A DNA stretch of 64,000 bases from assembly GCA_964397485.1 (NCBI GenBank), contig CAYNHT010000004.1:7825-71824 (forward strand), read 5' to 3'. Below, piece by piece: positions 13,563-63,272 of this stretch. The notes beneath the pieces were generated by a model. It saw only the letters and a list, made by a program, of their open reading frames with translations, did no database searches and had not been told where the DNA came from. The stretch comes from an uncultured Muribaculaceae bacterium (GTDB lineage Bacteria; Bacillota_I; Bacilli_A; RF39; UBA660). The position numbers and the translations under genes were made by a program. Position 1 is the first letter of the stretch, and every line of letters starts with the position of its first letter.

Positions 13563-13590
13563 ATGTAAAAAAGAAATGTCTCATTTCTTT

Positions 13591-16674: not shown

Positions 16675-16702
16675 TTGTCAATAAACATATAATAGTGTAT
16701 AA
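16675..16702 (+). promoter_or_regulatory. Sigma-A-like promoter for tRNA-Leu (TTGTCA-16-TATAAT).
   Basis: TTGTCA at 16675-16680, TATAAT at 16697-16702; tRNA starts ~30 nt downstream. Confidence 0.5.
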
Positions 16703-16732
16703 TTAATGTTGCAGTGGATATTTCTACTATTT

Positions 16733-16817
16733 GCGGGTGTGGCGAAATTGGCAGACGCACTAGACTTAGGATCTAGCGCCTTACGGCATGGGGGTTCAAG
16801 TCCCTTCACCCGCACCA
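16733..16817 (+). tRNA. tRNA-Leu (anticodon TAG), type II tRNA with a long variable arm.
   Basis: 85 nt; GCGGGTG acceptor stem, anticodon loop CTTAGGA, long variable arm, GGTTCAAGTCC T-loop, encoded CCA. Confidence 0.85.
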
Positions 16818-16890
16818 AATAATTGATAATTAACCATTTATTCAAAATATAGATGGTTTTTTTGTGCTATAATTAGGTTATAAAAAATGT

Positions 16891-24973: not shown

Positions 24974-24999
24974 AAATAAGACCCCCTTCTTTAGTACCA

Positions 25000-43798: not shown

Positions 43799-44275
43799 CT
43801 AATTATTATTATCTAGTCTTTCTAAATAACCACTTGTTTGATACCTCTCCCCACATTTTAAATAGGGTTCATAATTTTCTATGCTAGAATCTCTTAGGAC
43901 GTTAACATAACCACTACAAATAATATTATTATTTATTGGATCATTGATTACACCAATAAAATTATCTTTTTGCAAAGACTTTACTGTTATGGTTAATCTT
44001 GTGCCGACAGGTACTCCTAAAGCATAATATTTATTAATATATTCTTGAGTAGCTTTGATCATCGTTCCCTCTACCTTACGATAACTGCTAATATTTTCAT
44101 TATTAATATAATTATTTCCAGGTTTATTATTATTGTTGTTACGAGCAGTAATTGGATTAGTAATTGGTAACTTATTAAAATTTTTATTAATTGTAACTGC
44201 CACAATAATTATACAAAGAGCCAAGATTCCACAAAATCCCAACATTGCTCTTAATCCCCATCCGTGGTTATTCAT
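43799..44275 (-). CDS. Membrane-anchored hypothetical protein (158 aa).
   Basis: N-terminal TM segment (LGFCGILALCIIIVAVTI) then an Asn-rich extracellular region; starts 10 nt after the NrtR-like gene, so probably co-transcribed. Confidence 0.5.
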   Translation of the reverse strand: MNNHGWGLRAMLGFCGILALCIIIVAVTINKNFNKLPITNPITARNNNNNKPGNNYINNENISSYRKVEGTMIKATQEYINKYYALGVPVGTRLTITVKSLQKDNFIGVINDPINNNIICSGYVNVLRDSSIENYEPYLKCGERYQTSGYLERLDNNN

Positions 44276-44285
44276 AAGAACCTCC

Positions 44286-44957
44286 CTAAAATAAATTTCT
44301 TTCTTTTATTTCCTCTTTGAATTGATATAATTTAGCAGGTCTACCATTAGCCCCTTCATTCTTATATCCAGTGTCTTCAATTAGACCCAAATTAATGAAT
44401 TTTTTACGGAAATTTCTTCGGTCCAATTCCTGACCAAGTATTTGCTCATATACCCTTTGCAATTCTGGTAAAGTAAAATCACTTGGGAATAGACTCTTTA
44501 ACACATTACTATTAACTATTTTCTTTCTTAAATGTTCAATTGCATTTTCAATTATAATTTCATGATCATATCCCATCTTAGGTATGGCATCAATCGTAAA
44601 CCATGAACTTTCAATGTTAGACCTTTCTTCTCTTTTTATTTCAATACTTTTACTATCAATTAATCCAATAAATGAACATGCAATAATTCGTTCATCCGGA
44701 TTACGATTGATTTCACTAAATACATGAGCTTGTTCTATAAATAAATTAGGTATTCCACATTTGTCAAATACAACATCACTAATATTATCTTCCAAAGTTT
44801 CTGTATCAGTCAAAAATCCTCCTGGTAAAGTCCAGTATCCTTTGTAAGGTTCAGTTTTTTTACGTAATAATAAAACCTTTAACTTTCCTTTATCGATCGT
44901 AAAAATACTTATTAATGTTTCTACAATATTACTATATTCCTTACTAGAATCATTCAT
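44286..44957 (-). CDS. nrtR: NrtR-family regulator: degenerate (non-catalytic) Nudix domain plus a C-terminal winged-helix DNA-binding domain.
   Basis: Nudix box skeleton G-x5-E-x7-..-G-U is present (GGFLTDTETLEDNISDVVFDKCGI), but REx2EE is replaced by DVVFDK. C-terminal LPELQRVYEQILGQELDRRNFRKKF...GRPAKLYQF matches the NrtR wHTH domain as I recall it. Confidence 0.55.
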   Translation of the reverse strand: MNDSSKEYSNIVETLISIFTIDKGKLKVLLLRKKTEPYKGYWTLPGGFLTDTETLEDNISDVVFDKCGIPNLFIEQAHVFSEINRNPDERIIACSFIGLIDSKSIEIKREERSNIESSWFTIDAIPKMGYDHEIIIENAIEHLRKKIVNSNVLKSLFPSDFTLPELQRVYEQILGQELDRRNFRKKFINLGLIEDTGYKNEGANGRPAKLYQFKEEIKERNLF

Positions 44958-45121: not shown

Positions 45122-47713
45122 TTAATTTGTTGGGGTTATCGACATATCAAAATTACGTAACTCATATATTGCAAAACCTGCTTGAGTTCCTGTTATATCT
45201 TTATTAGTAGTAAAAATTATACTTTGAATTTTATGCTGCTTTGGTTTTACCGTAATATAGAATACAGGATAAGTTGAATCAGCTAAAATTCCATTAGTCT
45301 TAATAATATCAATTGGATTAGAATAATGATTAGCTGGTGTATAAAGAGAGTTTGATACAATTACTAACGGTTCTAAATATCCACTATCAACGCAATCTTC
45401 AATACTAGCGACATATCCATCTTCAAATTTTATTTTAAAATTACTAACAGTTACACTTCCACTATTATATAATCTAAAAAACATTTGATTCCAATTTAAT
45501 TTGTTATCAGGCTCATTGTCAACTAAATATTCGCGTTCTCCAGCAAATACCTGTTTAACATTACCAACTTTTTCAATGTTAGTTAACATTTTACTATCAT
45601 CACTATTAAACGGTCTTAAACATTGACCATAATCATAATTATTATTACCAATTGTTTCAAATGAACTACACCAACCTTTTAAATCTTTGGTTGGATCATT
45701 GCTTGTATATATATTATCGTAGTTCATACTTATATCACTTCCATAATTAGGTTGTATATTTTTTAATTTTTCAATTAATACTACAGGTTCTTGGAAAATT
45801 TTAGATAAATTTAAATTACTATCATAACTAACCAACATAGCATCACTATGTCCTTTGTTAAAGTTTTTTAAATCCATATTAGAAGAATAAGTACTTCCTG
45901 ATACTATATATTGACCATTACCTGCTTTTATCATATTTCTAAATTTTTCACTGTTATCTCCACCAAATACTTTTTTAGAAATTACATTTCCATTAGTTAT
46001 ATTATACTTTACAATAATTGCATTACTATATCCTTCATTGGATTTAGATATTCCAGTCATATCTAAATCGGATGATTTGCTATACCCTATTACTACAACT
46101 TCGTTATTGTCGCTTTTTTCTATTGCATAAAATACGTCATCATTACTTCCTCCAAATGAATTTTTCCACAAAACCGTATCTAAATTTTTATTATATTTTA
46201 TTATTACAGCATCTACATAACCATTACTTGCCTTACTTAATCCGGACATATCCATATTATTAGCGGCACTTTGACCAACTACTATGTAACCGTCTGATAC
46301 TTCAATAACATCATAAAAATAAGTGTGTCCATCACCACAAAAAGTATTCTTTGTTAATATATCTAAACTACTATTGTATTTTACAATTATACCAATGTAA
46401 TTAAAATTGCTTGGACATGTTGTTCCAGCCATATCACCATTTACTGAAGCTGAATTACCTACAACAATATAATTAGAGTCAGCTGAAGCTAACAGACTTT
46501 GATATGCATCAGCGGACGCCCCACTAAATATATGATGATCTATTATATTTAAATTTAAATCATATGACATTATTATTGCATCCAAACTACCAGGAACAGC
46601 TGGTCTTACTAATGAAGCTACATCTCCATCAAATGTAGAAGACAGTATATGGCCAACTACTACAATCTTATTTTCTTGATTAATTACTTTTATAAATGTT
46701 TCATAATTATTGTTTGATGAACCAAAAACTTTATTAATAATTACTTCACCTTGCTTATTGTATTTAACAATAACCGCATCACTCGGACCACCTTTATAAT
46801 CAACTATGTCACCGTCACTACTTGCCGTTGTACCTACAGCAATATAACCGTCCACCGTTTCTACAACTGAATTAAACGAATCCTCATTGCTTCCACCATA
46901 GTTTTTACTCCATAGGACATTGCCTTGATTATCAAACTTTACTATAATGGCGTCAAAACCACCATTATTACCGGTCCCATATTTTGTTATTACTTCAGAA
47001 TTACTTTTACCAACTGCTATATATCCGCCATCACTTGTTTCTTTAACATCATTAAATTCATCAAGATATTTACCACCATAACTTACATAATGACTCGCAA
47101 ATGTTGAGGCATCAAGTAGACAATCTACATAAGCATTATAACCATAACTATCAGCACCAACTTTCTCAATCTCTACATAACCTACACAACGATTTGTTAA
47201 ATCAGTTGGGATTCTTATCTCAGCAACTTTTTCTTCATCAATTAATAAGTTAAGATCAAGCATTGTTGTTTCACCAATCTCAGTTGGCAAAGTAACATTC
47301 ATACTTTTGGCACTTGCAACCATTTTCTGTTGGTACCATTTAAATGAATCATTATCATAAAGTTGTAACGAATAATTAACTATCCCATTTTCCTTATAAA
47401 TTAATACTTTTGTTTCATCTGGTATTTCTTGATTATTTAAAGGGTTTAAAATTTTTCCCCTTAAATATCCCGTTTCTTTTAATCTTCCTACTTCAACATA
47501 AGTTGTATCTCCTTCCCATACTAACTCATCATTATATTTAAAATAATATAATTCGGCTGATTTGGCAACCATGTCTCTTTGTCTGTCATAGACTCCACCT
47601 TTACTTCTATCAATAATATTCATTATTATTGGGGTTGCTATTAGGGCTATGATTGCAAGAATCACTATTACTGCAAGTAACTCTATTAAAGTAAATCCTC
47701 TTTTCTTTTTCAT
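45122..47713 (-). CDS. Giant prepilin-signal SBBP beta-propeller repeat protein, array B paralog 1 (~864 aa). Start set to ATG at 47713 (MKKKRGFTLIEL...); the ORF-track start at 47773 adds 20 non-homologous residues.
   Basis: Class III signal peptide; conserved ~200-aa N-terminal domain; >=6 repeats of the form DGGY.AVG.S.S.D.D...GG.DA.IVKYD..GN..W.K.FGGS..D.F (SBBP-like); conserved ~280-aa C-terminal domain ending IYELRNFDMSITPTN. Confidence 0.8.
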   Translation of the reverse strand: MKKKRGFTLIELLAVIVILAIIALIATPIIMNIIDRSKGGVYDRQRDMVAKSAELYYFKYNDELVWEGDTTYVEVGRLKETGYLRGKILNPLNNQEIPDETKVLIYKENGIVNYSLQLYDNDSFKWYQQKMVASAKSMNVTLPTEIGETTMLDLNLLIDEEKVAEIRIPTDLTNRCVGYVEIEKVGADSYGYNAYVDCLLDASTFASHYVSYGGKYLDEFNDVKETSDGGYIAVGKSNSEVITKYGTGNNGGFDAIIVKFDNQGNVLWSKNYGGSNEDSFNSVVETVDGYIAVGTTASSDGDIVDYKGGPSDAVIVKYNKQGEVIINKVFGSSNNNYETFIKVINQENKIVVVGHILSSTFDGDVASLVRPAVPGSLDAIIMSYDLNLNIIDHHIFSGASADAYQSLLASADSNYIVVGNSASVNGDMAGTTCPSNFNYIGIIVKYNSSLDILTKNTFCGDGHTYFYDVIEVSDGYIVVGQSAANNMDMSGLSKASNGYVDAVIIKYNKNLDTVLWKNSFGGSNDDVFYAIEKSDNNEVVVIGYSKSSDLDMTGISKSNEGYSNAIIVKYNITNGNVISKKVFGGDNSEKFRNMIKAGNGQYIVSGSTYSSNMDLKNFNKGHSDAMLVSYDSNLNLSKIFQEPVVLIEKLKNIQPNYGSDISMNYDNIYTSNDPTKDLKGWCSSFETIGNNNYDYGQCLRPFNSDDSKMLTNIEKVGNVKQVFAGEREYLVDNEPDNKLNWNQMFFRLYNSGSVTVSNFKIKFEDGYVASIEDCVDSGYLEPLVIVSNSLYTPANHYSNPIDIIKTNGILADSTYPVFYITVKPKQHKIQSIIFTTNKDITGTQAGFAIYELRNFDMSITPTN

Positions 47714-47744
47714 ACACTTTACTACCTTTCTATTATACATATAA

Positions 47745-47773
47745 ATAATAACACACCTGCTGTTTTTCGTCAA
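47745..47773 (-). promoter_or_regulatory. Promoter (TTGACG-17-TATTAT) for array B paralog 1.
   Basis: Minus strand: plus CGTCAA 47768-47773, 17-nt spacer, plus ATAATA 47745-47750. The same element sits upstream of paralogs 2 and 3. Confidence 0.4.
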
Positions 47774-47798
47774 TTAAATGTATATACATATATATTGA

Positions 47799-47826
47799 TT
47801 GAAAGAAAAAAAGAGTTAAACTCTTT
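47799..47826 (-). terminator. Terminator immediately after array B paralog 2.
   Basis: AAAGAG-TTAAA-CTCTTT hairpin abutting the stop codon, then TTTTTTCTTTC on the minus strand. Confidence 0.45.
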
Positions 47827-50427
47827 TTAATTGGTCGGTGTTATTGACATATCAAAATTACGCAATTCATATATTTGTAACCCGTCAGTGTTATTAATAA
47901 TTTGACGATTAGAAGTAAAAATTACACTGCTTAATTTTGATTTTTTAGGCTTTATTTTTATATCTATATTTGGATAATTTCCGACTCCTGTAGTTCCTCC
48001 CGTATTAATAATATCCAATGAGTTAGGAAAGAAATATGTAGTTGAGTTTAATAATAAAGAGGATACAACAACCATTGGCTCAATATAATTATTAGCTAAT
48101 GCATCGCTAATACTAGCTACATAACCGTCTTCAAATTTAAGTTTCAAATTTGAAATCTCAATTGTATTTCCACCACCGCTTAAAAAATACAAATATATTC
48201 TATACCAATTATAATTGTTGTCTGGTTGTTTTTCTATTTCATATTCGTGTTCTCCTGCATATACAACTTTAAAATTAGAAGTATTTTCACCATTAGTTAA
48301 AAGTCTAATATCATCATTATTAAATGGGAATAAACAATAACCATAATTATGATTAATATTAGGAGCATAATTAGTTCCAGAACTACACCAGTTGCCAATA
48401 TCAACACTAGGATTATTAGATGTATATACATTGTCATAATATGAAGAAATTTCAGTACCGTAATTTGGAACAATCGTTTTTAATTTATCAATTATCACAA
48501 CTGGTTCTTCGAACGTTTTAATTAGGTTCAAGTTACTATCATAACTGACTAAGATTGCATCTCTATGTCCTTTATTAAAGTTTTGCAAGTTATAATTATT
48601 TGAATATGTTCCACCTGCTATAACATATCTATTATTATCATTTCTTATAATAGCATTAAAAGCATCACTATTACTTCCACCGAAAACTTTCTTTTGCAAT
48701 ACATTTCCACTTCCATTATATGTAACTAAAAATGCATTACTATATCCACTTCCTGATACAGTTATACCATTCATATCCATATCTTCTGATTTACTATATC
48801 CAACAACAGCAAATTCCTCATTACTAATTTTTAATATATCTCTGACATAATCTTCATCCGAACCACCAAAACTCTTTTTCCAAACAATATTTGATAAGTT
48901 TTTATCATATTTAACTATGATACCATCATATATTTCAGAATCTGTTTTACTCAAGTCAGTCATATCTCCATTAATAGAAGCGCTATATCCCACTGTAATA
49001 TATCCATTATCAACTTCAATTGCACCATTAAATAGTTCTGACTTACTTCCCTTGAAAGAATTTTTATATTCTAGATTACCATTACTATCATATTTTATGA
49101 TTATCGCATCGCTATCTGCATAGGTAGTATCATATGCTAATCCAAGCATATCGTGGTCAAATGAACTCGAACCACCAGTAACAAGATATCCATTATCACT
49201 TGTTTGCATTACGGTGTTAAAGTTTTCATAATATGTTCCTGAGAAAAAACTTCTCCATACGGTATTAAAATTATTATCAAATTTAATAATTATACCGGCA
49301 CTTCTCGTTCCTGGAGCAGTAACACCTGTCATATCTCCGTCTTTCACTAAGATACATGAACTTCCTACAACAATAAAACCATCATTAACTTTAATAATAT
49401 CTCTAAATGCATCAGTTCCATTTGTACCAGATGAACCATAACTTATTTTATTAACAACATTACCACTTAGATCATATTTAACTAAAATAGCATCATCAGT
49501 TCCACCTTTATATATACCTTCTAAATCTACATCATTTGAATTAGTATATCCAACTGCAACATATCCGTCAGTAGTTACAGCAACTGCACGAAAATAATCA
49601 TGACTAGTACCACCAAAATTTTTGCTCCATTCAACATTACCTTGACTATCAAATTTAACAATTATTGCATCATATTTTCCTTTAGTAGTATTTCCATATT
49701 TTGTTATGACTTCAGAATTACTCTCTCCTACTGCTATATATCCGCCATCAGCAGTTTGTTTAACATCATTAAACACATCTAAGTATTTTCCACCATAACT
49801 GACATAGTGACTTGCAAATGTTGATGCATCAATTAAACAGTCTACAAATGCATTATACTCATAATTGTTATTACCAATTTTTTCTATTTCTACATATCCT
49901 ACACAACGATTTGTTATATCGGTTGGTATTCTTATCTCGGCTGATTTTCCCTGATTAATTAACGTATTTAAATCAATAGTTGTTGTTTCTCCAACTTCGG
50001 TTGGTAGAGTGATATTCATGCTTTTCACACTTTCTACCATTTTTTGTTGATACCACTTAAATGAATCATTATCATATAACTGTAACGAGTAATTTACTAG
50101 CCCGTTTTCCTTATAGATTAATACCTTTGCATCATCTGGGATTTCTTGATTATTTAATGGGTTTAAGATTTTCCCCCTTAAATATCCTGTTTCTTTTAAT
50201 CTTCCAACTTCAACATAAGTTGTATTCCCTTCCCATACCAACTCATCATTATATTTAAAATAATATAATTCGGCTGATTTGGCAACCATGTCTCTTTGTC
50301 TATCATAAACTCCGCCCTTACTTCTATCAATAATATTCATTATTATTGGGGTTGCTATTAGAGCTATGATTGCTAGAATTACTATTACTGCGAGTAATTC
50401 TATTAATGTAAATCCTCTTTTTTTCAT
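47827..50427 (-). CDS. Giant prepilin-signal SBBP beta-propeller repeat protein, array B paralog 2 (866 aa).
   Basis: MKKRGFTLIELLAVIVILAIIALIATPIIMNIIDRSKGGVYDRQRDMVAKSAELYYFKYNDELVWEG..., almost identical over the first ~200 aa to paralogs 1, 3 and 4; divergent repeats in the middle; conserved C-terminus. Confidence 0.85.
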   Translation of the reverse strand: MKKRGFTLIELLAVIVILAIIALIATPIIMNIIDRSKGGVYDRQRDMVAKSAELYYFKYNDELVWEGNTTYVEVGRLKETGYLRGKILNPLNNQEIPDDAKVLIYKENGLVNYSLQLYDNDSFKWYQQKMVESVKSMNITLPTEVGETTTIDLNTLINQGKSAEIRIPTDITNRCVGYVEIEKIGNNNYEYNAFVDCLIDASTFASHYVSYGGKYLDVFNDVKQTADGGYIAVGESNSEVITKYGNTTKGKYDAIIVKFDSQGNVEWSKNFGGTSHDYFRAVAVTTDGYVAVGYTNSNDVDLEGIYKGGTDDAILVKYDLSGNVVNKISYGSSGTNGTDAFRDIIKVNDGFIVVGSSCILVKDGDMTGVTAPGTRSAGIIIKFDNNFNTVWRSFFSGTYYENFNTVMQTSDNGYLVTGGSSSFDHDMLGLAYDTTYADSDAIIIKYDSNGNLEYKNSFKGSKSELFNGAIEVDNGYITVGYSASINGDMTDLSKTDSEIYDGIIVKYDKNLSNIVWKKSFGGSDEDYVRDILKISNEEFAVVGYSKSEDMDMNGITVSGSGYSNAFLVTYNGSGNVLQKKVFGGSNSDAFNAIIRNDNNRYVIAGGTYSNNYNLQNFNKGHRDAILVSYDSNLNLIKTFEEPVVIIDKLKTIVPNYGTEISSYYDNVYTSNNPSVDIGNWCSSGTNYAPNINHNYGYCLFPFNNDDIRLLTNGENTSNFKVVYAGEHEYEIEKQPDNNYNWYRIYLYFLSGGGNTIEISNLKLKFEDGYVASISDALANNYIEPMVVVSSLLLNSTTYFFPNSLDIINTGGTTGVGNYPNIDIKIKPKKSKLSSVIFTSNRQIINNTDGLQIYELRNFDMSITPTN

Positions 50428-50459
50428 ATGTCAACTACCTTCCTTATCATTACATATAA

Positions 50460-50488
50460 ATAATAACATAACCATATTGTTTCGTCAA
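50460..50488 (-). promoter_or_regulatory. Promoter (TTGACG-17-TATTAT) for array B paralog 2.
   Basis: Plus CGTCAA 50483-50488 and ATAATA 50460-50465. Confidence 0.4.
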
Positions 50489-50508
50489 TTATTAGTATAC
50501 AGATAAAT

Positions 50509-50529
50509 GAAAAAAGAGTTTGAAACTCT
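50509..50529 (-). terminator. Terminator after array B paralog 3.
   Basis: AGAGTTT-G-AAACTCT hairpin with flanking T-run. Confidence 0.45.
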
Positions 50530-50531
50530 CT

Positions 50532-53084
50532 TTAATTTGTTGGTGTTATTGACATATCAAAATTACGTAATTCGTAAATTGATATTCCCCTATCAGTTCC
50601 CGTTACATCTCTATTAGATGTAAAAATAAAACTATCTATTTTCTTTTGTCTAGATTTTAAATTCATATAGAAAACAGGGTAAGAAGAGCCATCTATTTTT
50701 CCATCTGTAAATAAAATATTATTTAGATTGTTGTAAGTTCTATCACTGTATGGAGGATATGTAAGAATATTCGAAACCACAACTAGAGGTTCAATATACC
50801 CGTCACTAACACTTTGTTCTATACTACCTATATACCCATCTTCAAATTTTATCTTAAAACTACTTAATTCTGTATTGTCATTTTGCATCCTAAAATATAG
50901 TTGATACCAATTAGTTTTAACATTTGGTTCATTGATTATAGGATATTCATTTTCACCTTGATAAATTATTTTAAAATTCGGATTGTTTTCGATGTTATTT
51001 AATAACTTCATATCATCAGAGTTAAATGGTCTTAAACACTGACCATAAGGATAATTACTTTCTCCATTTGGCAAGTAATTGCTACACCAACCGCTTAGAT
51101 CAACTTCTGGATTATTGCTAGTAAAAATATTTGAATAATTTAAACTAGTATCAGTTCCATAGTTAGAAACTATTGTTTTTAATTTTTCAATTATAACAAC
51201 AGGTTCCTGAAATATTTTTGACAAATTAAAATTCATATCATAACCTACTAGAATTGCATCACTATGCCCTTTATTAAAGTTTTTTAAATATCCGTCACTA
51301 GAGAACGTTTGCCCAGCTAATATAAATCTATTACTACTAGTCTTGATAATACTTCTAAATATATCACTGTTGTTTCCGCCGAAGATTTTTTTAGAAACAA
51401 TACTTCCATCAGTAATGCTATATTTTACAATAACAGCATTACTGTAACCATCTTTCGATATAGCTAGTCCACTCATATCCATATCTTCAGACTTACTATA
51501 CCCTACCGCTACTACCTCATTCGCATTAACAGAAGTAACAGCATAAAATACATCATCATTACTCCCACCAAATGACTTTTTCCATATTATATTTTGTAAA
51601 TTTTTATCATATTTAACAATTACTGCATCATTGTAACCATTACTGGCTTTACTTAAATCTGTCATGTCTAAATCAAACCCATTTGAATGACCTACAACTA
51701 TATAGCCATCTGATACCTCAACTATATCATTAAAAGCACCACGACTATTATTACCACCATAAAATTCCATACTTGATACCATTTCCATATCGTTATCTAA
51801 TTTAAATATATATGATGTATATCCACCTTTATATGTTGCTACTCCGATATACCCATTATCTGTAGCAATAAATTCTTTAAAATCTCTATAACTGTGAGCA
51901 TTATGAAATTTAGTTGTCAATATATTAAAGTCAAAATCCATTGTCATAATAATAAATTGAAAACGCCCACCTTCATATATAGCATTTAGATAATCTCCGT
52001 CCTTGGTATATATATCAGCATTTCCTGATATTATAAACTTATTGTCTTTTATCATTATGTGGTTAAAACTTTCACCACCATCTAGGTTTGTTCCACCATA
52101 AGTTCTTTTGTATACTACATTTCCTTGTTTATTAAACTTGACAATTATAGCGTCTGTCGGACCTCCTTTGTAATCATCTATATCGATGTCTTCACTAGAT
52201 GTAGAACCTACTGCTACATAACCATCAGCTGTTTCTAAAACTGAATTAAAAATGTCATTATTGCTTCCACCAAAATTTTTGCTCCAAAGAACATTACCGT
52301 TTGAATCAAATTTTACGATTATCGCATCATACATTCCATTATTACCAATTCCATATTTTGTAATAACTTCCGAGTTACTTCTTCCAACCGCTACATAACC
52401 ACCATCAGTTGTTTCTTTTACATCATTAAATTCATCAAGATATTTACCACCATAACTAACATAGTGACTTGCAAATGTTGATGCATCTAGTAAACAATCT
52501 ACATATGCTTCATATGCATAATTATCATTACCTATCTTTTCTACTTCAACATATCCTACACAACGATTTGTTATATCGGTTGGTATTCTTATTTCTGCTG
52601 CTTTACCTTCGTTTATAAGAGTATCCAAATCAACTGTTGTTTTTTCTCCTATTTCAGTTGGTAATTCTATATTCATGCTTTTGACGCTTTCTACCATTTT
52701 TTGTTGATACCACTTAAATGAATCATTATCATATAATTGAAGTGAATACTTTACTATACCGTCTTCTTTATAAATTAGTACTTTTGTTTCATCTGGTATT
52801 TCTTGATTATTCAAAGGATTTAATATTTTTTCTCTTAAATATCCTGTTTCTTTTAATCTTCCTATTTCAACATAACTTATATCATCTTCCCATACTAACT
52901 CATCATTATATTTAAAATAATATAATTCAGCTGATTTGGCAACCATATCTCTTTGTCTATCATAGACTCCACCTTTACTTCTATCAATAATATTCATTAT
53001 TATTGGCACAGCTATTAGGGCTATGATTGCAAGAATCACTATTACTGCTAAAAGTTCTATTAACGTAAATCCTCTTTTTTTCAT
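50532..53084 (-). CDS. Giant prepilin-signal SBBP beta-propeller repeat protein, array B paralog 3 (850 aa).
   Basis: Same architecture as paralog 2; ends ...ISIYELRNFDMSITPTN. Confidence 0.85.
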   Translation of the reverse strand: MKKRGFTLIELLAVIVILAIIALIAVPIIMNIIDRSKGGVYDRQRDMVAKSAELYYFKYNDELVWEDDISYVEIGRLKETGYLREKILNPLNNQEIPDETKVLIYKEDGIVKYSLQLYDNDSFKWYQQKMVESVKSMNIELPTEIGEKTTVDLDTLINEGKAAEIRIPTDITNRCVGYVEVEKIGNDNYAYEAYVDCLLDASTFASHYVSYGGKYLDEFNDVKETTDGGYVAVGRSNSEVITKYGIGNNGMYDAIIVKFDSNGNVLWSKNFGGSNNDIFNSVLETADGYVAVGSTSSEDIDIDDYKGGPTDAIIVKFNKQGNVVYKRTYGGTNLDGGESFNHIMIKDNKFIISGNADIYTKDGDYLNAIYEGGRFQFIIMTMDFDFNILTTKFHNAHSYRDFKEFIATDNGYIGVATYKGGYTSYIFKLDNDMEMVSSMEFYGGNNSRGAFNDIVEVSDGYIVVGHSNGFDLDMTDLSKASNGYNDAVIVKYDKNLQNIIWKKSFGGSNDDVFYAVTSVNANEVVAVGYSKSEDMDMSGLAISKDGYSNAVIVKYSITDGSIVSKKIFGGNNSDIFRSIIKTSSNRFILAGQTFSSDGYLKNFNKGHSDAILVGYDMNFNLSKIFQEPVVIIEKLKTIVSNYGTDTSLNYSNIFTSNNPEVDLSGWCSNYLPNGESNYPYGQCLRPFNSDDMKLLNNIENNPNFKIIYQGENEYPIINEPNVKTNWYQLYFRMQNDNTELSSFKIKFEDGYIGSIEQSVSDGYIEPLVVVSNILTYPPYSDRTYNNLNNILFTDGKIDGSSYPVFYMNLKSRQKKIDSFIFTSNRDVTGTDRGISIYELRNFDMSITPTN

Positions 53085-53116
53085 ATGTCAACTACCTTCC
53101 TTATCATTACATATAA

Positions 53117-53145
53117 ATAATAACATACCGATATTGTTTCGTCAA
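53117..53145 (-). promoter_or_regulatory. Promoter (TTGACG-17-TATTAT) for array B paralog 3.
   Basis: Plus CGTCAA 53140-53145 and ATAATA 53117-53122. Confidence 0.4.
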
Positions 53146-53164
53146 TTATTACTATATAGATAAA

Positions 53165-53188
53165 TGAAAAAAGAGTTTGAAACTCTTT
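53165..53188 (-). terminator. Terminator after array B paralog 4 (and its out-of-frame remnant tail).
   Basis: AAAGAGTTT-G-AAACTCTTT hairpin plus T-run. Confidence 0.45.
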
Positions 53189-53191
53189 TTA

Positions 53192-53248
53192 ATTTGTTGG
53201 TGTTATTGACATATCAAAATTACGTAATTCGTAAATTGATAAACCGTC
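53192..53248 (-). pseudogene. Untranslated, in-frame remnant of the conserved C-terminal 19 codons (DGLSIYELRNFDMSITPTN*) of array B paralog 4, cut off from the CDS by a premature TGA at 53249-53251.
   Basis: Minus strand reads ...AAT TAT AAT AAT TTA TGA GAC GGT TTA TCA ATT TAC GAA TTA CGT AAT TTT GAT ATG TCA ATA ACA CCA ACA AAT TAA. The DNA is near-identical to the coding 3' ends of paralogs 1-3. Confidence 0.6.
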
Positions 53249-55783
53249 TCATAAATTATTATAATTTTTAGAACTTGTTAAATATATTGAATTCAACTTT
53301 GATAATTTAGGTTTAAAAATTAAGTAAAGTGATGGTGAAGATCCAACACCAGTTCTTCCACCTTCATTTATTAAATCTATAACATTTGGATAAAGTGCAG
53401 GTGGATAAGTTGTAGTTACATACGAATTTACAATTACAAGTGGCTCTATGTAACCTTTTTCTATTGCGTCTGTTATATGACCAATATAACCATCTTCAAA
53501 TTTTAACTTTAAATTAGATAATTCTAAATTACCAGTACCAAAGCTATTATAGGCACGTAACAAATGCCAATTATTATTATTTGTTTGTTGATTTATTACC
53601 TCATATTCATATTCACCCTGATACATTTTAGCTCCATAACCTAGTTCTGAAACTGTCAATAATTTTTGATCATCCATATTAAATGGTCTTAGACAAAACG
53701 CATGATAATAATTACTTGTATTGCCGGTAGTATAAGGGACATTGCTATTGCACCATCCTAGTAAATCTTTTGTGGGATCATTACTAGTGTATATATTATC
53801 ATACTTTAAACTAATATTAGAACCATAATTGCTTTGGATAGGCTTGATTTGATCTATTAGTACAACTGGTTCTTGGAATATTTTAGATAAATTAAAATTA
53901 TTATCATAACTAACTAAGATTGCATCCTGATGACCTTTGTTAAAATTTTTCAAATCCAAGTTGTTCGAATATGTAGATCCGGACAATACATAAGCACCAC
54001 TACTAGTTTTTACGATACTATGGAATTTATCGCTATTCGTTCCACCAAATGTTTTTTTAGAAATAACATTTCCTGTAGCTATGTCATATTTTACTAAAAT
54101 AGCATTGCCATACCCATCTGTTGATTTAGTTATTCCGCTCATATCCATATCTTCAGATTTACTATATCCAACAATTACAACCTCATTATTATTCACTTTT
54201 TCGGCTGAATAAAAATAATCGTCATTACTCCCGCCAAATGTTTTTTTCCATAATACTGCTTCTAAATTTTTATCATATTTCACGATTACAGCATCGAAAT
54301 AACCATTGTCAGTTTTACTAAGACCTAACATATCTTGATCAGATGATTTACTATATCCGACAGCTATATAACCATCTAATACTTCTACTACATCATAAAA
54401 ATAATCCTGTTTACTTCCACGCAAGGAATTTTTTCCAACTAAATTTCCTTCATCATCAACCTTTATAATAATGGCTTCCTCTTGATAAGTATCAGTTGTA
54501 TAACCAATACCATCCATATCATAATCTTTTGACGTAGAAAAACCAGTTATGACATAGTTATTATCACTAGTCTTGATTCCTTTATTGAATTCTTCATTAT
54601 AATGGCCAGTAAAAATATTCATCCATTCAACCTCTAAATTTAAATCAAACTTTATTGTTAACCCCTCTAAAGATCTAACTAGTCCTTGAACATCTGTCAT
54701 ATCTCCGTCATTATTACTGCCTATTCTAGCGAAAACAACAACCGAATTACCAGATGATACAACTCCCATAAAGTGTTCCCAACTTTGACTTGTTCCAAAA
54801 TTTCTTTTAGCCAAAACTTCACCTTGGCTACTATATTTTACTATTAAACCGTCACTTGTTCCACCCCAATAAGAATCAATATCTAAATCATTACTAGATG
54901 TTGAGCCAACTGCAATATATCCACCCGGAATTTCAACTACACTTCTGAATATATCATTATTACTTCCACCAAAATTTTTACTCCAAAGGACATTACCATT
55001 AACATCAAATTTTACTATAATAGCATCATATTTGCCATTATTTCCAATTCCATATTTAGTTATTACATTCGAATTGCTTCTTCCAACAGCTAGATATCCT
55101 CCATCACTTGTTTCAATTACATCATTAAATTCATCTAAATATTTGCCGCCATAACTAAGATAGTGGCTTGCAAATGTTGATGCATCAAGTAGACAATCTA
55201 CATATGCTTCATATGTATAATTATCATTACCTACTTTTTCTATATCTACATATCCTACACAACGATTCGCTAGATCAGTTGGTATTCTTATCTCTGCTGC
55301 TTTACCTTGATCAATTAATGTGTTTAAATCAACTGTGGTTTTAGTACCAATTTCAGTTGGAAGTTCTATATCCATACCTTGGACACTGGCTACCATTTTT
55401 TGTTGGTACCACTTAAATGAATCATTGTCATATAATTGCAAAGAATAATTTATTTTACCATCTTCTTTGTATATTAATACTTTTGCTTCATCTGGGATTT
55501 CTTGGTTATTTAAAGGGTTCAATATTTTTTCTCTTAAATATCCCGTTTCTTTTAATCTTCCTATTTCAACATAACTTATATCATCTTCCCATACTAACTC
55601 ATCATTATATTTAAAATAATATAATTCAGCTGATTTGGCAACCATATCTCTTTGTCTATCATAGACTCCACCTTTACTTCTATCAATAATATTCATTATT
55701 ATTGGGGTTGCGATAAGAGCTATGATTGCTAAAATTACTATTACTGCTAGTAATTCTATTAATGTAAATCCTCTTTTTTTCAT
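53249..55783 (-). CDS. Giant prepilin-signal SBBP beta-propeller repeat protein, array B paralog 4 (844 aa), C-terminally truncated by ~19 residues relative to its paralogs.
   Basis: MKKRGFTLIELLAVIVILAIIALIATPIIMNIIDRSKGG... with the same architecture; ends ...LTSSKNYNNL* where paralogs continue to ...IYELRNFDMSITPTN. Confidence 0.8.
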   Translation of the reverse strand: MKKRGFTLIELLAVIVILAIIALIATPIIMNIIDRSKGGVYDRQRDMVAKSAELYYFKYNDELVWEDDISYVEIGRLKETGYLREKILNPLNNQEIPDEAKVLIYKEDGKINYSLQLYDNDSFKWYQQKMVASVQGMDIELPTEIGTKTTVDLNTLIDQGKAAEIRIPTDLANRCVGYVDIEKVGNDNYTYEAYVDCLLDASTFASHYLSYGGKYLDEFNDVIETSDGGYLAVGRSNSNVITKYGIGNNGKYDAIIVKFDVNGNVLWSKNFGGSNNDIFRSVVEIPGGYIAVGSTSSNDLDIDSYWGGTSDGLIVKYSSQGEVLAKRNFGTSQSWEHFMGVVSSGNSVVVFARIGSNNDGDMTDVQGLVRSLEGLTIKFDLNLEVEWMNIFTGHYNEEFNKGIKTSDNNYVITGFSTSKDYDMDGIGYTTDTYQEEAIIIKVDDEGNLVGKNSLRGSKQDYFYDVVEVLDGYIAVGYSKSSDQDMLGLSKTDNGYFDAVIVKYDKNLEAVLWKKTFGGSNDDYFYSAEKVNNNEVVIVGYSKSEDMDMSGITKSTDGYGNAILVKYDIATGNVISKKTFGGTNSDKFHSIVKTSSGAYVLSGSTYSNNLDLKNFNKGHQDAILVSYDNNFNLSKIFQEPVVLIDQIKPIQSNYGSNISLKYDNIYTSNDPTKDLLGWCNSNVPYTTGNTSNYYHAFCLRPFNMDDQKLLTVSELGYGAKMYQGEYEYEVINQQTNNNNWHLLRAYNSFGTGNLELSNLKLKFEDGYIGHITDAIEKGYIEPLVIVNSYVTTTYPPALYPNVIDLINEGGRTGVGSSPSLYLIFKPKLSKLNSIYLTSSKNYNNL

Positions 55784-55870
55784 CTACTACACTACCTTTC
55801 TTACAATATATAAATGATATCATATTTATATAATAACCGTCAATGTTAGAACAATACTATTTCATTCAAA

Positions 55871-55902
55871 ATAAAAAGAGTTGAATCTTGAGTTCAACTC
55901 TT
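55871..55902 (-). terminator. Rho-independent terminator after rpoC.
   Basis: AAGAGTTGAA-TCTTGA-GTTCAACTCTT, 10-bp stem, followed by a T-run on the minus strand. Confidence 0.65.
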
Positions 55903-55907
55903 TTTGG

Positions 55908-58900
55908 TTAATCCATTAATTCTTGTTCTAATGCTTCTAATGGTTCTTCCTTTAGTAAATCTAGTTCTAAATCATAATCAAACTTTTGATATTTTTTAGC
56001 ACCTGTTCCTGCTGGAATTAATTTACCAATAATAACATTTTCTTTTAACCCGTTTAAGTGATCCACTTTACCATGAATTGCTGCATCTGTAAGTATTCTA
56101 GTTGTTTCTTGGAATGATGCTGCAGATAAGAATGAATCAGTTTCAAGTGAGGCTTTAGTAATACCTAACAATACTGGACGACCAGTTGCTGGATTTTTAC
56201 CTTCAAGAATTAATCCTTTATTAATATCTGTAAATTTATTTATGTTTACCATTGTTCCTGGTAATGATAATGAATCACCTGTATTAATTATCTTTATTCT
56301 AGAAATCATTCTTCTAGCTATAACTTCAACGTGTTTATCACTAATATCAACACCTTGAGAACGATAAACTTTTTGAATTTCTAATAAAATGTATTGTTGT
56401 ACAGTAATTGGATCTGTTACGATTAAAAGTTCTTTAGGACTAATTGCACCATGTGTAAGTCTTTGCCCCGCTTTAACTTCTTCGTTTAGCTCAACAGCTA
56501 ATTTAGAACCATAATTTGATGTATGCTCTTTTGTTTCAACATCGTTTGTTACTGAAATAACAAATTTACCATTTTCTTCTTCGATCTTAGATACTCTACC
56601 GTTAATATCTGAAATAGTAGCTTTACCTTTAGGATTACGAGCTTCAAACAACTCTTGAACACGAGGTAAACCTTGTGTAATATCATCCCCGGCAACTCCA
56701 CCTGTATTAAATGTACGCATCGTTAACTGTGTACCCGGCTCACCAATTGATTGGGCTGCCATAATACCAACTGCTTCTCCAATTTCAACAACTGATCCAG
56801 TTGCTAAATTACGACCATAACATTTTTGACATACACCATGGTCTGTTTTACATGTAAGAACAGTTCTGATAGGTACTTTTGTAATTCCTGCTTTAATAAT
56901 CTTGTCGGCAAGTTGTTCATTAATATAAGTATTTCTCTCAGCAATGACTTCTTTTGTTTCTGGATGAATAACTTTTTTATTAGTATATCTTCCGATAATA
57001 CGATCAGAAAGTGATTCAATTATTGTTCCATCTTTTTCATTAGTAAAAGCTGCAACTAACACACCTTGTTCAGTACCACAATCTTCTTCTTTGACAATTA
57101 TATCTTGTGATACGTCAACTAAACGACGAGTTAAGTAACCAGCATCCGCTGTTTTTAACGCTGTATCAACGGCTCCCTTACGAGCACCATGTGTTGATAA
57201 GAAGAATTCAGATATTGTTACCCCTTCACTAAATGAAGATTTAACAGGAATCTCTACATATTCTCCACCCGGCTTAAAGAATAATCCACGCATACCAACT
57301 AATTGAGTATGACTTCCAATATCCCCACGAGCTTTACTCATCATCATGATAGAAATTGGATTTTCTTTATCTTCTTTAACCATTGTTTCTAATTCCTTAG
57401 AAATTTTTGTTTTAGCGTTTGACCATATATTAATAACTTTTTCATATCTTTCTTGATCAGTAATTAAACCTCTCTTAAATTGCTTATTAATAGTGTCTAC
57501 CATATCTTGACTCTCTTTTAAGACTTCAGGTTTAATAGTACTTTCTTTGATATCTGTAATAGCAATCGATATTCCAGATAAAGTAGAATATTTAAATCCT
57601 AAATCCTTTAGTTTATCAAGCATAACTGATGTTTCAGTTGTTTGATATCTTTTATATATTTGAGCAATTATCTTACTTAAAGCCCCTTTATTTAAAGCAT
57701 CAATCAGTGGCATATTTTCAATTTCTTCTTTAATGTTTTTACCACTATCAATAAAGAATTTGCTAGGAGTAATTTTTTCAATATTCTCAGAACTTCCTTC
57801 GTTAATATATTGGAAAGTATCTGGGAAAATTTCATTAAATAATAATTTACCAGGAGTTGTTGCTAAATACTTATTCATATAAGCATCAGGGAAAATTTTG
57901 TATTTAAATGATCTTACTGGTAACGCAATACGTGTATGAAGAGTTATTTCTCTTCTTTCATATGCCATAATTGCTTCGTTAGCATTTTTAAATACTCTTC
58001 CTTCACCAGGTAATCCCGCTTTTTCAATTGTTAAGTAGTAATTACCTAAAACCATATCTTGTGACGGTGTAACAATTGGTTTACCATCTTTGGGACTTAG
58101 GATGTTATTAGCACCTAACATCAAAATACGAGCTTCTGCCTGTGCTTCTTCACCAAGTGGTACGTGAACTGCCATTTGATCTCCATCAAAGTCGGCGTTG
58201 AATGCCGCACAAACTAATGGATGCAATCTTATAGAACGACCACTAATTAATTTAGGTTCAAATGCTTGAATACCTAATCTATGTAATGTAGGAGCACGGT
58301 TTAATAACACTGGATGCTCTTTGATCTTTTCTTCAACAATATCCCAAACTCTAGGATCTTGATTTTCAATCATTCTTTTCGCAGCTTTAATATTAGAAGC
58401 TATTTCCTTAGTTACTAATCCATTAATAACATGTGGTTTAAATAACTCTAATGCCATTTCTTTAGGTATTCCACACTCATACATTTTTAAGTTTGGACCT
58501 ACTACGATAACTGAACGTCCTGAATAATCAACACGTTTACCTAATAAGTTTTGGCGGAATCGACCTTGTTTACCTTTAAGCATACTACTTAATGATTTTA
58601 ACGGACGATTTCCAGCCCCTGTGATATTTCTACCGCGACGACCATTATCAAATAAAGCATCAACAGCTTCTTGAAGCATACGTTTTTCATTTTGAATAAT
58701 GATAGACGGAGCTCCTAAATCCATTAATTTCTTTAAACGGTTATTTCTGTTAATAACACGACGATATAAATCATTTAAATCACTAGTAGCGAAACGTCCA
58801 CCATCCAATTGAATCATAGGACGTAACTCTGGTGGTATAACTGGTAGTGCATCTAAAATCATCCATTCAGGACGATTTCCTGATTCCATGAATGCACTTA

Positions 58901-59543
58901 ATACGTCTAATCTTTTTATTAAACGAATTCTTTTTTGTGAAGTAGAATCTTTAATTTCTTCAATATCTTTTTTTATTTGTTCTACTTCTGGTTCAAGTAC
59001 TACTTGTTCCAATAATTCTTTAATTGCTTCCGCACCCATTCCTACTCTAAAAGTATTACCATATTTTTCATAATAAGCACGGTATTCTTTATCAGAAATA
59101 GTTTGTTTTTTCTCTAATGGGGCTGCTCCTGGATCTAAAACAACATACGATACAAAGTATAATACTTCTTCTAAATCACGTGGAGACATATCTAGAACTA
59201 ATCCCATTCTTGATGGAATTCCTTTAAAGAACCAAATGTGAGATACAGGAGTTGCAAGTTCAATATGTCCCATACGCTCACGACGTACCTTAGAACGAGT
59301 TACTTCAACTCCACATCTATCACAAACAATATTTTTATATCTTAAACGTTTATATTTACCACAAGAACATTCAAAATCCTTTGTTGGACCAAATATTTTT
59401 TCACAAAATAGTCCGTCACGCTCTGGTTTTAAAGTTCTGTAGTTAATAGTTTCAGCTTTTTTTACTTCACCAAATGACCAAGATCTTATTTTATCAGGTG
59501 AGGCAATTGCGATTTTTAAACCTTCAAAGTTGTTAACATCCAT
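55908..59543 (-). CDS. rpoC: DNA-directed RNA polymerase subunit beta' (RpoC).
   Basis: 1211 aa; [29 protein letters not shown]..., zinc finger CSCGKYKR...[15 protein letters not shown] catalytic motif. Confidence 0.98.
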
Positions 59544-62500: not shown

Positions 62501-63175
62501 TGCATCTTTGTCAAGTGTTCTTCCGATATAATCATCTTCTCCGTATAAGCTAATAATATCTTCATCGTTTGATAAACCAATAGCACGAAGTAATGTAGTA
62601 ACTGGAACTTTTCTTGTTCTATCAATACGAACATAGATGACATCTCTTGCATCTGTTTCATATTCTAGCCAAGTTCCTCTAGTTGGAATAACTTGTGCTG
62701 CTACGACTAAACGACCATTTTTATCTATTTCTTTAACAAAATATACACTTGGAGAACGAACTAATTGTGAAACAATTACTCTTTCTGCCCCGTTGATAAT
62801 AAATGTGCCAGATTCAGTCATGATGGGCATGTCTCCAAGATAAATATCTTGTTCCTTAACTTCCCCTGTCTCTTGATTAAAAAGTCTAGCTGCGACCTTT
62901 AAAGGTGCTGCATAAGTTGCATATCTCTCCTTGCACCCTTTAATTGAATATCTTGGTTCTTCAAAAGAATAGTCACCAAATTCTAACGACAAATTTCCAG
63001 TGAAACTTTCCACTGGAAAAATATCATCAAATACTTCCTTGATTCCATCAGTCATAAACCAATTATATGACTTTTTTTGGATTTCTAGTAAATTACCTAG
63101 TTCAATAGCATTTTTTGTTTTTGCATAACTTCTTCTTTCACGGTGATCACCAAATTTTTTAATTGTATAAGCCAC
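59543..63175 (-). CDS. rpoB: DNA-directed RNA polymerase subunit beta (RpoB). Start re-assigned to GTG at 63175 (M)[18 protein letters not shown] with a GGGGTGA RBS; the ORF-track TTG at 63205 adds 10 residues.
   Basis: ~1210 aa; N-terminal spacing to RERRSYAK matches Bacillus RpoB (MTGQLVQYGRHRQRRSYAR); C-terminal acidic tail; stop overlaps the rpoC start. Confidence 0.95.
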
Positions 63176-63272
63176 TCTTTCACCCCTATAAACTATATTT
63201 ACCAAAGAACATAAACTCGATTATAAAGTATATGCCGCCAATTTATAATTTTATCAGTATATATACAAATTG

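Follow-up and report, generated by a model that had tools for sequence, protein, structure and literature searches.

An array of four tandem paralogs beside rpoC raises the question of how the starts of genes can stay nearly identical while the centres of the same genes diverge. The array (array B) lies at 45122-55907 on the minus strand of a 64,000-nt stretch of DNA from an uncultured bacterium, referred to here as the window; it is flanked by rpoC and an NrtR-like gene. A first-pass annotation read the conserved gene ends and spacers as the substrate of a cassette-shuffling system with diversifying selection in the exposed domain. The data argue for a different explanation as a whole: very probably, a 5' carrier segment is converted among all copies of a genome, while the cargo segments that follow it are old orthologous lineages.

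Gene content and protein architecture

Array B contains four tandem minus-strand paralogs, each encoding about 850 aa:

G1: 53249-55783, minus strand; 844 aa as read; rpoC-proximal and first gene of the array, cut by an in-frame TGA
G2: 50532-53084, minus strand; 850 aa; putative modular type IV pilin
G3: 47827-50427, minus strand; 866 aa; ortholog B_865a in a related species
G4: 45122-47713, minus strand; 863 aa counted from the ATG at 47713; ortholog B_861 in a related species

The span first given for the array (47700-53260) does hold real paralogs, but it takes in only G3, G2 and their spacers. The G1 protein (P0007) is identical on seven contigs; its cross-species ortholog is B_863. Arrays in this family have four to at least nine tandem copies, are accompanied by dispersed copies and lie outside any pil locus. 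A single-protein search of genome contigs with G2 gave no match; a profile search returned mostly N-terminal-only pilins, and full-length relatives numbered only about four. The species of the window apparently has no entry among the species representatives searched. The neighbouring array A in the window carries a Laminin_G_3/ConA-like module type.

All four proteins consist of a prepilin signal, a pilin module, a small beta domain, a seven-bladed propeller and a beta-sandwich. PF07963 (N_methyl) matches at about residues 1-26 in G1-G4 with E values of 6.5e-9 to 1.8e-7, above the gathering score, and TIGR02532 matches the N-terminus of all four (32.3 bits; cut-off 16.3). In the AlphaFold (AF2) model of G2 (pLDDT 86.9), an alpha1 helix (residues 8-62) is followed by a small pilin beta domain to about residue 115 (strands 69-115), a helix and beta domain to about 196, a propeller of seven four-stranded blades (about 203-628) and a C-terminal beta-sandwich (658-850). 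The blade sequence type 'DGGY..VG.S.S...D' recurs in the propeller. Pfam and NCBIfam recognise neither the propeller nor the C-terminal domain, apart from a sub-threshold Beta-prop_EMC1_N match.

The top Foldseek match of the G2 model in the PDB (E 5e-21, 18-20 % identity) is the propeller of CylK, a cytoplasmic enzyme that carries out Friedel-Crafts alkylation and has a Ca-binding N-domain; the likeness to CylK-type/SBBP-like seven-bladed beta-propellers (PDB 7fh7, 7roo) is at the level of fold and has little bearing on function.

G1-G4 thus combine a class III signal, a predicted alpha1 helix and small pilin domain, and an extra C-terminal module. On the structural model, array B is a predicted tandem family of modular type IV pilins, with a 'carrier' (codons 1 to about 215) and a propeller/beta-sandwich 'cargo'. 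No pilus machinery genes were found among the ten window ORFs scanned. The propellers may be ligand-binding modules displayed on a pilus.

Spacers and promoter-like sites

The spacers, all read on the minus strand, are as follows:

rpoC/G1 spacer: 55784-55907, minus strand; rpoC terminator 55905-55873; TTGACG-18-TATCAT; GAAAGGTAGTGTAGTAG
G1/G2 spacer: 53085-53188, minus strand; 104 nt, counted from the ancestral G1 stop
Elements of the G1/G2 spacer: minus strand; hairpin 53170-53188; TTGACG-17-TATTAT 53145-53117; GGAAGG within 53092-53100
G2/G3 spacer: 50428-50531, minus strand; 104 nt; hairpin 50513-50530; TTGACG-17-TATTAT 50488-50460; GGAAGG within 50435-50443
G3/G4 spacer: 47714-47826, minus strand; 113 nt; hairpin 47810-47826; TTGACG-17-TATTAT 47773-47745; GAAAGG within 47722-47730

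The spacers had been described as nearly base-identical. This is true of G1/G2 and G2/G3, which share 99 of 104 nt (152 of 157 if the comparison takes in the final 53 nt of the gene upstream), but not of the other two. The G3/G4 spacer has 44-72 % identity to these two, and its likeness to them is confined to the part from the -35 element to the ATG; the rpoC/G1 spacer belongs to a second promoter/5'-UTR class, common to the dispersed copies P0005 and L004a. The promoter reported for the array spacers, TTGACG-17-TATTAT, is indeed found upstream of G2, G3 and G4, in each case with a TG extension. The GGAAGG ribosome binding site is present in G1/G2 and G2/G3 and is replaced by GAAAGG in G3/G4. 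An A-tract/hairpin/T-tract follows G1, G2 and G3, as had been proposed for each spacer; these hairpins are weak (-6.5 to -7.7 kcal/mol by folding) and were missed by a consensus terminator scan because they have fewer than three G-C pairs. In each of G1-G4 a TG-extended promoter-like site and an RBS precede the ATG, and the signal peptide is full-length.

Concerted evolution of the 5' module

Alignment of the four units confirms that identity is strongly mosaic, with divergent central regions, and not uniform. By gene position, identity among G1-G4 is 88-100 % at nt 1-240, 81-90 % at nt 240-690, 40-60 % in the centre and 77-88 % in the last ~90 nt. The first ~600 nt had been called nearly base-identical; this description fits the first ~240 nt only. 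Beyond codon 80, the window copies differ at 0.4-0.8 of synonymous sites, with pN of 0.05-0.13.

The segments concerned are:

G1 homogenised 5' module: 55139-55783, minus strand; codons 1-215, comprising signal peptide, pilin module and second small domain
G2 homogenised 5' module: 52440-53084, minus strand; codons 1-215, clustering by genome
G3 homogenised 5' module: 49783-50427, minus strand; codons 1-215, clustering by genome
G4 homogenised 5' module: 47066-47713, minus strand; codons 1-216, with one additional Lys codon

Trees were built from six paralogs of the window's genome (genome A), namely G1-G4 and copies at two other loci; the cross-species comparison at the DNA level covers one second species with a full array (genome B). 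For codons 1-215 the six genome-A paralogs together are monophyletic (neighbour-joining bootstrap 100 %), and third positions alone also give 100 % for this grouping. For codons 280-864 the genes pair by ortholog instead (G1 with B_863, G3 with B_865a, G4 with B_861), again at 100 %. The switch-over lies at codons ~215-280. The claim that gene starts evolve in concert is thereby upheld: the 5' ~650 nt evolve in concert within the genome, including the copies at two other loci.

Identity values follow the same division. Within genome A identity is 90-99 % for codons 1-80 and 81-90 % for codons 81-230; codons 1-80 of G1 are 99-100 % identical to those of the dispersed copy P0005. The 5' module is 80-90 % identical within genome B and only 59-68 % between A and B. 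In codons 301-840, by contrast, orthologs are 70-78 % identical and paralogs 49-66 %. N-terminal pN is 0.27-0.30 between species and 0-0.11 within the genome; in the core this pattern is reversed, with 0.12-0.23 for orthologs and ~0.4-0.45 for paralogs (codons 301-490). In almost all of 53 family members the best N-terminal partner is decoupled from the best core partner.

A permutation run test on polymorphic sites detects a G1-G2 tract at gene nt 114-225 (global P 0.005), as well as signals for G1-P0005 (P 0.006) and G2-P0005 (P 0.019). Conversion in codons 81-230 would be infrequent or old, since within-genome pS there is substantial (0.41-0.54); purifying selection accounts for much of the amino acid identity in these codons. 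Homogenisation is absent from other pilin subfamilies, i.e. array A and the 765-768-aa genes of contig L011, each of which has an N-terminus of its own. Literature searches gave no specific result, either on this pilin family or on pilin N-termini evolving in concert.

Cores, 3' tails and the premature stop in G1

Diversifying selection in the exposed domain, as first suggested, finds no support in the cores. Between species, orthologous cores have dN/dS of 0.09-0.27; between strains, comparing the window with assembly L001, the cores of G1-G4 have zero differences. Positive selection on the core was considered and gave no signal; paralog values are 0.3-0.5 with saturated dS. As judged from these comparisons, the cargo parts appear to be old, distinct lineages under purifying selection between species.

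Homogenisation of the last ~60 nt had also been claimed for the array in general. The last 51 nt are identical between G1 and G2 (51/51), while G3 and G4 have synonymous differences there. Across species the tail motif (Y/H)ELRNFDMSITPT(N/E) is kept, and the last 24 codons of G1 are closer to the ortholog (86 %) than to the paralogs (64-76 %), with no by-genome pattern. The general claim is not borne out. The tail is presumably kept by selection on a family-wide C-terminal motif, with a recent G1/G2 tract spanning tail and spacer as the exception.

The reading frame of G1 ends early and leaves the following remnant:

G1 untranslated C-terminal remnant: 53189-53248, minus strand; 19 intact codons DGLSIYELRNFDMSITPTN and TAA

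The TGA (53249-53251) precedes the intact ancestral stop (53189-53191) by 19 sense codons. B_863 has TGG (Trp) at this position, so the premature stop is a plain TGG to TGA nonsense change relative to the ortholog. Genetic code 4 (TGA as Trp) was rejected as an explanation: three other window ORFs end in TGA, and alongside 109 TGG codons no in-frame TGA other than that of G1 was found. The stop had been placed inside a homogenised segment. It is real and lies in the rpoC-proximal copy, but is ~8 nt upstream of the sharp edge of the G1/G2 identical block, and hence outside it.

Differences between closely related assemblies

The window and L001 differ at six sites over 16,752 nt, all within 58 nt near the 5' end of G2:

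Minimal conversion tract: 52884-52941, minus strand; holds all six differences between the window and L001
Maximal G1 to G2 tract: 52846-53006, minus strand; 161-nt run, base-identical to G1 55545-55705

At 6/6 sites the window G2 has the G1 base, while L001 and a further contig, L003, have G2-private bases. By our own arithmetic, six differences would cluster this tightly by chance with a probability of about (58/16752)^5 = 5e-13. The 58-nt tract looks like a conversion event from G1 to G2 caught in the act. The converted allele is found on one contig (the window) and the unconverted allele on five. L004 and L005 differ by one SNP and have no such tract.

In the related species, contig L009 (JGI 3300029822) has the structure of L008 with exactly one 2605-nt unit missing; elsewhere in ~20 kb the two differ by one SNP. 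The surviving gene is 100 % identical to B_863 up to nt 273 and to B_861 from nt 406. The L008 arrangement recurs in L007 and L010. This fits a one-unit deletion through putative recombination at the 5' repeats, and to that extent the idea that direct repeats serve expansion, contraction or swapping has support; an assembly skip could mimic it. The second gene of L003 joins a G2 5' end (to about nt 375) to a different paralog; here an assembly join through exact repeats is possible.

Competing explanations

In array B the phylogeny switches between segments, identical tracts are specific to pairs of copies, and one tract differs between near-identical assemblies. Ancient duplicates whose N-terminal module and tail are simply the most constrained parts, with purifying selection and no exchange, would account for some of this: from codon 81 on, the window copies have high pS (0.45-0.8) and pN of 0.05-0.13, the tail motif is conserved as protein across species, and selection alone is the best account for the last ~45 nt of G3 and G4. 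As the explanation of the array it is very unlikely. For codons 1-215 it is contradicted because six paralogs cannot gain the same species-specific substitutions in this way: between species no part is less conserved than the N-terminal module (pN 0.27-0.30; cores 0.12-0.23), which is nevertheless near-uniform within each genome, and by-genome support is 100 % on third positions alone. The non-coding G1/G2 and G2/G3 spacers, with 99/104 nt in common, also speak against it. The contingency or antigenic-variation locus proposed in the first-pass annotation, in which cassettes are shuffled through the homogenised ends and the propeller evolves under diversifying selection, is quite unlikely, although mosaic identity, long direct repeats, the nonsense codon in G1, the possible unit deletion in L009 and the possible foreign-core chimera in L003 would all suit it. 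The cores are orthologous and conserved between species (dN/dS 0.09-0.27), and in all four window genes they match L001 without a single difference; the 3' end has no by-genome homogenisation. All four copies are complete, and each carries a promoter-like site, RBS and signal peptide of its own. Neither silent partial cassettes nor promoter-less, 5'-truncated donors are present, and the variable domain is invariant between strains.

Collapse, polishing or path-switching by short-read assemblers in repeats must also be weighed, as every sequence is a MAG or metagenome contig. L002 and L003 end exactly in or at repeats, the exact-identity crossover zones, at 132 and 161 nt, are about as long as the largest k-mers in common use, and a single contig carries the converted G2 allele. 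The window G2 tract, the L009 deletion and the L003 chimera could each have arisen when an assembler or polisher met exact repeats of 130-160 nt. An artefact can explain only these three strain-level events, not the concerted-evolution signal, and is extremely improbable as a general explanation: the by-genome pattern spans 645 nt, far beyond any k-mer, and extends to loci on other contigs; the independent assembly L001 (JGI 3300033161) matches the four window genes base for base except at six sites; the L008 arrangement is repeated in L007 and L010; and the 5' ends of paralogs are alike yet non-identical, with reproducible differences. Because of their exact repeats, contigs of these organisms break or mis-join at array loci, and MAG copy number and gene order are therefore unreliable without long reads.

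Conversion of the carrier remains the preferred explanation. The carrier, with the promoter/5'-UTR in some copies, would be overwritten time and again through gene conversion (non-reciprocal homologous recombination over short tracts) running among all family members of a genome, tandem and dispersed. Such overwriting would keep it concerted within the genome while it diverges quickly between species. Homogenisation may be favoured because every carrier must fit a common prepilin peptidase, assembly machinery and filament core. The 130-160-nt identical stretches may in addition be the places where crossovers remove or add whole 2.6-kb units or give rise to chimeras.

Comparison with known systems

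In Neisseria pilE/pilS, silent copies that are 5'-truncated and lack a promoter donate the variable part, by conversion, to a single expression locus. Array B resembles this system in non-reciprocal recombination within a pilin family that has a conserved N-terminal and a variable C-terminal part. It differs in that conversion acts on the conserved part, every copy has its full length and a promoter-like site, and the variable parts do not change from strain to strain.

In Helicobacter pylori, babA/babB/babC undergo gene conversion and concerted evolution; their ends are near-identical and the function-determining middle is divergent, and intragenomic recombination ~60-240 bp from the start codon yields chimeras and moves 5' regulatory sequence between copies (PMC4552749, citing Pride & Blaser 2002). 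Array B shares the divergent, putatively function-determining middle and, very probably, recombination within the first few hundred bases. In bab, however, both 5' and 3' ends are homogenised, as opposed to the 5' end only; bab genes encode dispersed outer-membrane proteins and have phase-variable CT repeats, whereas array B encodes tandem Gram-positive-type pilins and no such repeats were seen in it.

Streptococcus sanguinis has modular type IV pilins, PilB with a vWA module and PilC with a ConA-like lectin module (Raynaud et al. 2021, PMC8179133). The ConA-like module type of PilC recurs in array A of the window. In array B the predicted cargo is a seven-bladed propeller and beta-sandwich that Pfam does not recognise, and the genes are tandem and dispersed and lie outside a pil locus. 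Concerted evolution of the carrier module, seen in array B, is not described in the S. sanguinis paper (PMC8179133).

Implications

Array B is a clear, though not unprecedented, case of segment-limited gene conversion, and an unusually clean natural example of conversion limited to one structural module. It belongs to an uncharacterised family of uncultured Bacilli, expanded and made up of very large modular type IV pilins, with copies beside rpoBC; the propeller and beta-sandwich cargos may serve in adhesion or in capturing substrates. Homogenisation affects the part that would have to fit shared machinery, and this part changes quickly between species; the putative ligand-facing modules are stable, ancient lineages. 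This is the opposite of the usual reading of 'conserved ends, variable middle'.

A further proposal is offered tentatively, as possible but rather doubtful: uncultured low-GC Bacilli may carry six to more than nine interchangeable pilus-displayed propeller proteins with a homogenised carrier, with the 130-160-nt repeats driving rapid gain, loss and re-pairing of cargos at the strain level. If true, this would be a recombination-based repertoire switch with a logic unlike that of silent-cassette systems, and a regime of 'carrier homogenisation, cargo conservation' in which genome-wide conversion would keep the carrier and its promoter/5'-UTR co-adapted to a single assembly machinery.

Array B and its setting

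Array B consists of four tandem minus-strand genes flanked by rpoC (55908-59543) and a gene for an NrtR-like Nudix regulator (44286-44957).

G1: 53249-55783, minus strand, array B ORF
G2: 50532-53084, minus strand, array B ORF
G3: 47827-50427, minus strand, array B ORF
G4: 45122-47713, minus strand, array B ORF (true ATG at 47713)

In the near-identical locus of a JGI assembly (L001), the ribosomal protein S12 gene is next after the array; this places the array between rpoBC and rpsL. The array, the regulator and a 158-aa ORF are wedged between these genes, an unusual site for a surface-protein array (seen from the flanks at 43799-44957 and 55908-63205). The 158-aa ORF is membrane-anchored and matches no family.

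A family of modular pilins

Residues 1-26 of all four products match the prepilin cleavage/methylation motif (PF07963, TIGR02532). An AlphaFold model of G2 (53 homologs as input, mean pLDDT 86.9) predicts the following features:

Residues 8-62: long alpha1 helix
After the alpha1 helix: small beta domain
To ~196: second helix plus beta domain
~203-628: seven four-stranded blades
658-850: C-terminal beta-sandwich

The top PDB match of the model is the CylK propeller (E 5e-21). Together, motif, model and match identify G1-G4 as predicted large modular type IV pilins, a concept described by Raynaud et al. 2021 (PMC8179133), with a pilin carrier (codons 1 to ~215) and a propeller and beta-sandwich core as cargo. 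No Pfam model yet covers the propeller or sandwich.

In protein and profile searches, family members are confined to uncultured 'Bacilli/Mollicutes-like' MAGs. For some full-length members (L012, L013, P0024/P0046) the contig label reads 'uncultured Muribaculaceae' or 'Ignavibacteriales', which conflicts with the low-GC Bacilli setting of all the rest and is probably a mistake of binning or taxonomic labelling.

A second pilin pair, array A (1693-6479, minus strand), encodes two large prepilin-motif proteins of 795 and 762 aa. Their N-termini are 74-75 % alike and unrelated to array B past the first 25 codons. Their cargo also differs, comprising fn3, Ig-like and Laminin_G_3/ConA-like lectin domains; the last is the module type of S. 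sanguinis PilC. Elsewhere in the window, two neighbouring ORFs (771 aa and 422 aa; 22685-26268, minus strand) share a one-base overlap; a Pfam search with these found nothing at E <= 0.001.

Mosaic identity along the units

A sliding comparison of the four units gives a clearly mosaic pattern of identity, as the first-pass annotation had reported: 88-100 % over the first ~240 nt of the gene (with spacer), 81-90 % over nt 240-690, 40-60 % in the centre and 77-88 % over the last ~90 nt. The same annotation described spacers and gene ends as nearly base-identical, which is true of the G1/G2 and G2/G3 spacers (99/104 nt, or 152/157 nt counting in the 3'-terminal 53 nt of the gene before each spacer). 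This tail-plus-spacer block has a sharp upstream edge, beyond which nearly all bases mismatch. The description fails for the other two spacers. The G3/G4 spacer is similar only between the -35 box and the ATG, with GAAAGG replacing GGAAGG, while the rpoC/G1 spacer represents a second class of promoter/5'-UTR, also carried by copies at other loci. TTGACG-17-TATTAT with an upstream TG precedes G2, G3 and G4; TTGACG-18-TATCAT precedes G1. Internal hairpins fold weakly (-6.5 to -7.7 kcal/mol, vs -15.4 after G4). In the array of a related species (L008, GCA_002410935.1), some genes are 13 nt apart (4658-4672, 7263-7277), with the RBS straight after the stop and neither hairpin nor promoter; thus, a terminator and promoter for each gene are not conserved in the family.

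Contrary to the earlier proposal, the 3' end shows no homogenisation by genome, except in the recent G1/G2 block: the tail motif (Y/H)ELRNFDMSITPT(N/E) is kept in both species, and the last 24 codons of G1 are 86 % identical to the ortholog vs 64-76 % to paralogs. Diversifying selection on the cores is likewise contradicted, as ortholog dN/dS is 0.09-0.27 and no core differences are found between strains.

G1 has an early TGA (53249-53251), and beyond it the original frame runs on intact for 19 codons to the ancestral TAA. This stop had been placed inside a homogenised segment; it is separated by ~8 nt from the block in which G1 and G2 are identical. Because the position is TGG (Trp) in the ortholog and TGA is an ordinary stop codon in this genome, this is a simple nonsense mutation deleting a conserved 19-residue tail. 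Every assembly of the species has it. With G1, L004a and the second L003 gene, at least three family members in this species are disabled or truncated. L004a belongs to a two-copy locus (L004/L005, 7285-12586), in which a broken copy, split into 742 + 107 aa, precedes the intact P0002.

Concerted evolution of the carrier

Within the window, codons 1-80 are the only segment with few synonymous differences (pS 0-0.36); G1 and G2 are identical there over 161 nt. From codon 81 onward, pS is 0.45-0.8 and pN 0.05-0.13, which by itself looks like purifying selection. Window data alone therefore give a mixed answer on homogenisation versus selection.

The decisive comparison is with the related species (genome B; the window species is genome A), whose MAG GCA_002410935.1 carries an array of at least nine tandem copies; in protein searches the best non-self matches of G1, G3 and G4 fall within this array. 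Two more loci of the window species were recovered, with P0002 (beside the broken copy) and P0005.

Nucleotide identity by segment
Codons 301-840, orthologs (G1~B_863, G3~B_865a, G4~B_861): 70-78 %
Codons 301-840, paralogs inside one genome: 49-66 %
Codons 1-80, genome A vs itself: 90-99 %
Codons 81-230, genome A vs itself: 81-90 %
Codons 1-230, genome B vs itself: 80-90 %
Codons 1-230, A vs B: 59-68 %

Since identity within each genome exceeds that between them, codons 1-230 group strictly by genome; the switch to grouping by ortholog falls at codons ~215-280, in the universally conserved first blade. NJ bootstrap support is 100 % for monophyly of the six genome-A copies over codons 1-215, also with third positions only, and 100 % for each ortholog pair over codons 280-864. 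Between species, the carrier is the fastest segment at the protein level (pN 0.27-0.30 vs 0.12-0.23 in cores); inside a single genome, no segment is more uniform. Constraint alone cannot give this combination; it is concerted evolution, which upholds the earlier proposal for the 5' end.

Almost all of the 53 family members have decoupled N-terminal and core partners. A protein's closest N-terminal match typically has about 70-100 % identity there and about 46-60 % in the core; its closest core match typically reaches about 55-80 %, usually with a far less similar N-terminus. Homogenisation stops at the subfamily boundary: array A has an N-terminus of its own, and so do the 765-768-aa pilins of L011. 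L011 (JGI Ga0334897_000005, 7535-17413, window species) combines two kinds of pilin gene in one array, four genes in all. Three, of 765-768 aa, form a different subfamily whose N-termini are homogenised among themselves (85-95 % alike). The propeller-family P0005 is inserted among them and, although at a different locus from G1, matches it at 99 % over the first 240 nt.

Possible exchange events between strains

L001, an independent assembly, differs from the window at six positions over 16,752 nt, all third codon positions inside 58 nt of G2 (52884-52941). At each, the window has the G1 base while L001 and L003 have G2-private bases. The region reads as a G1-to-G2 conversion tract of 58-161 nt (run test, global P 0.005); tracts shared with the dispersed P0005 are also detected. 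A read-mapping polisher could in principle have made the converted allele, which is on one contig, with the unconverted allele on five.

Two larger events fit recombination in the homogenised region. In the related species, L009 differs from L008 by one SNP and the exact lack of one 2605-nt unit, and L007 and L010 back the longer form; the L009 junction gene is 100 % B_863 through nt 273 and 100 % B_861 starting at nt 406, so the crossover lies within a 132-nt stretch identical in both. In L003 (ENA ERZ27252287 k141_204146, 2714-12549), the gene following G1 matches G2 to ~nt 375, then another paralog that contains an internal stop. Where G3, G4 and NrtR would be expected, this foreign-core chimera is followed by beta-lactamase-family, ScpA and ScpB genes. 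The L002 contig ends within the repeat where the chimera joins. Either the strain is rearranged here or the k141 contig is mis-joined. As assemblers can make such joins at k-mer-length repeats, the deletion and chimera are consistent evidence, not proof, of recombination. The repeats had rightly been counted as a recombination substrate.

Mechanism and known systems

Short-tract gene conversion among tandem and dispersed copies, limited to the carrier and in some copies reaching the promoter/UTR, is the best-supported account. The reason may be that one common machinery processes and assembles every carrier; as it must handle them all, a change fixed in one copy would be purged or passed to the others. 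A pilE/pilS-type system was rejected, as no array B copy is partial, all are apparently expressible, and the part exchanged is the constant rather than the variable one. In evolutionary terms, array B most resembles the H. pylori bab family, in which 5' recombination ~60-240 bp from the start yields chimeras (PMC4552749); unlike array B, bab is homogenised at both ends.

The first-pass observation is thus partly confirmed and its interpretation partly supported. Array B is a new, well-resolved example of a known phenomenon, in an uncharacterised pilin family.
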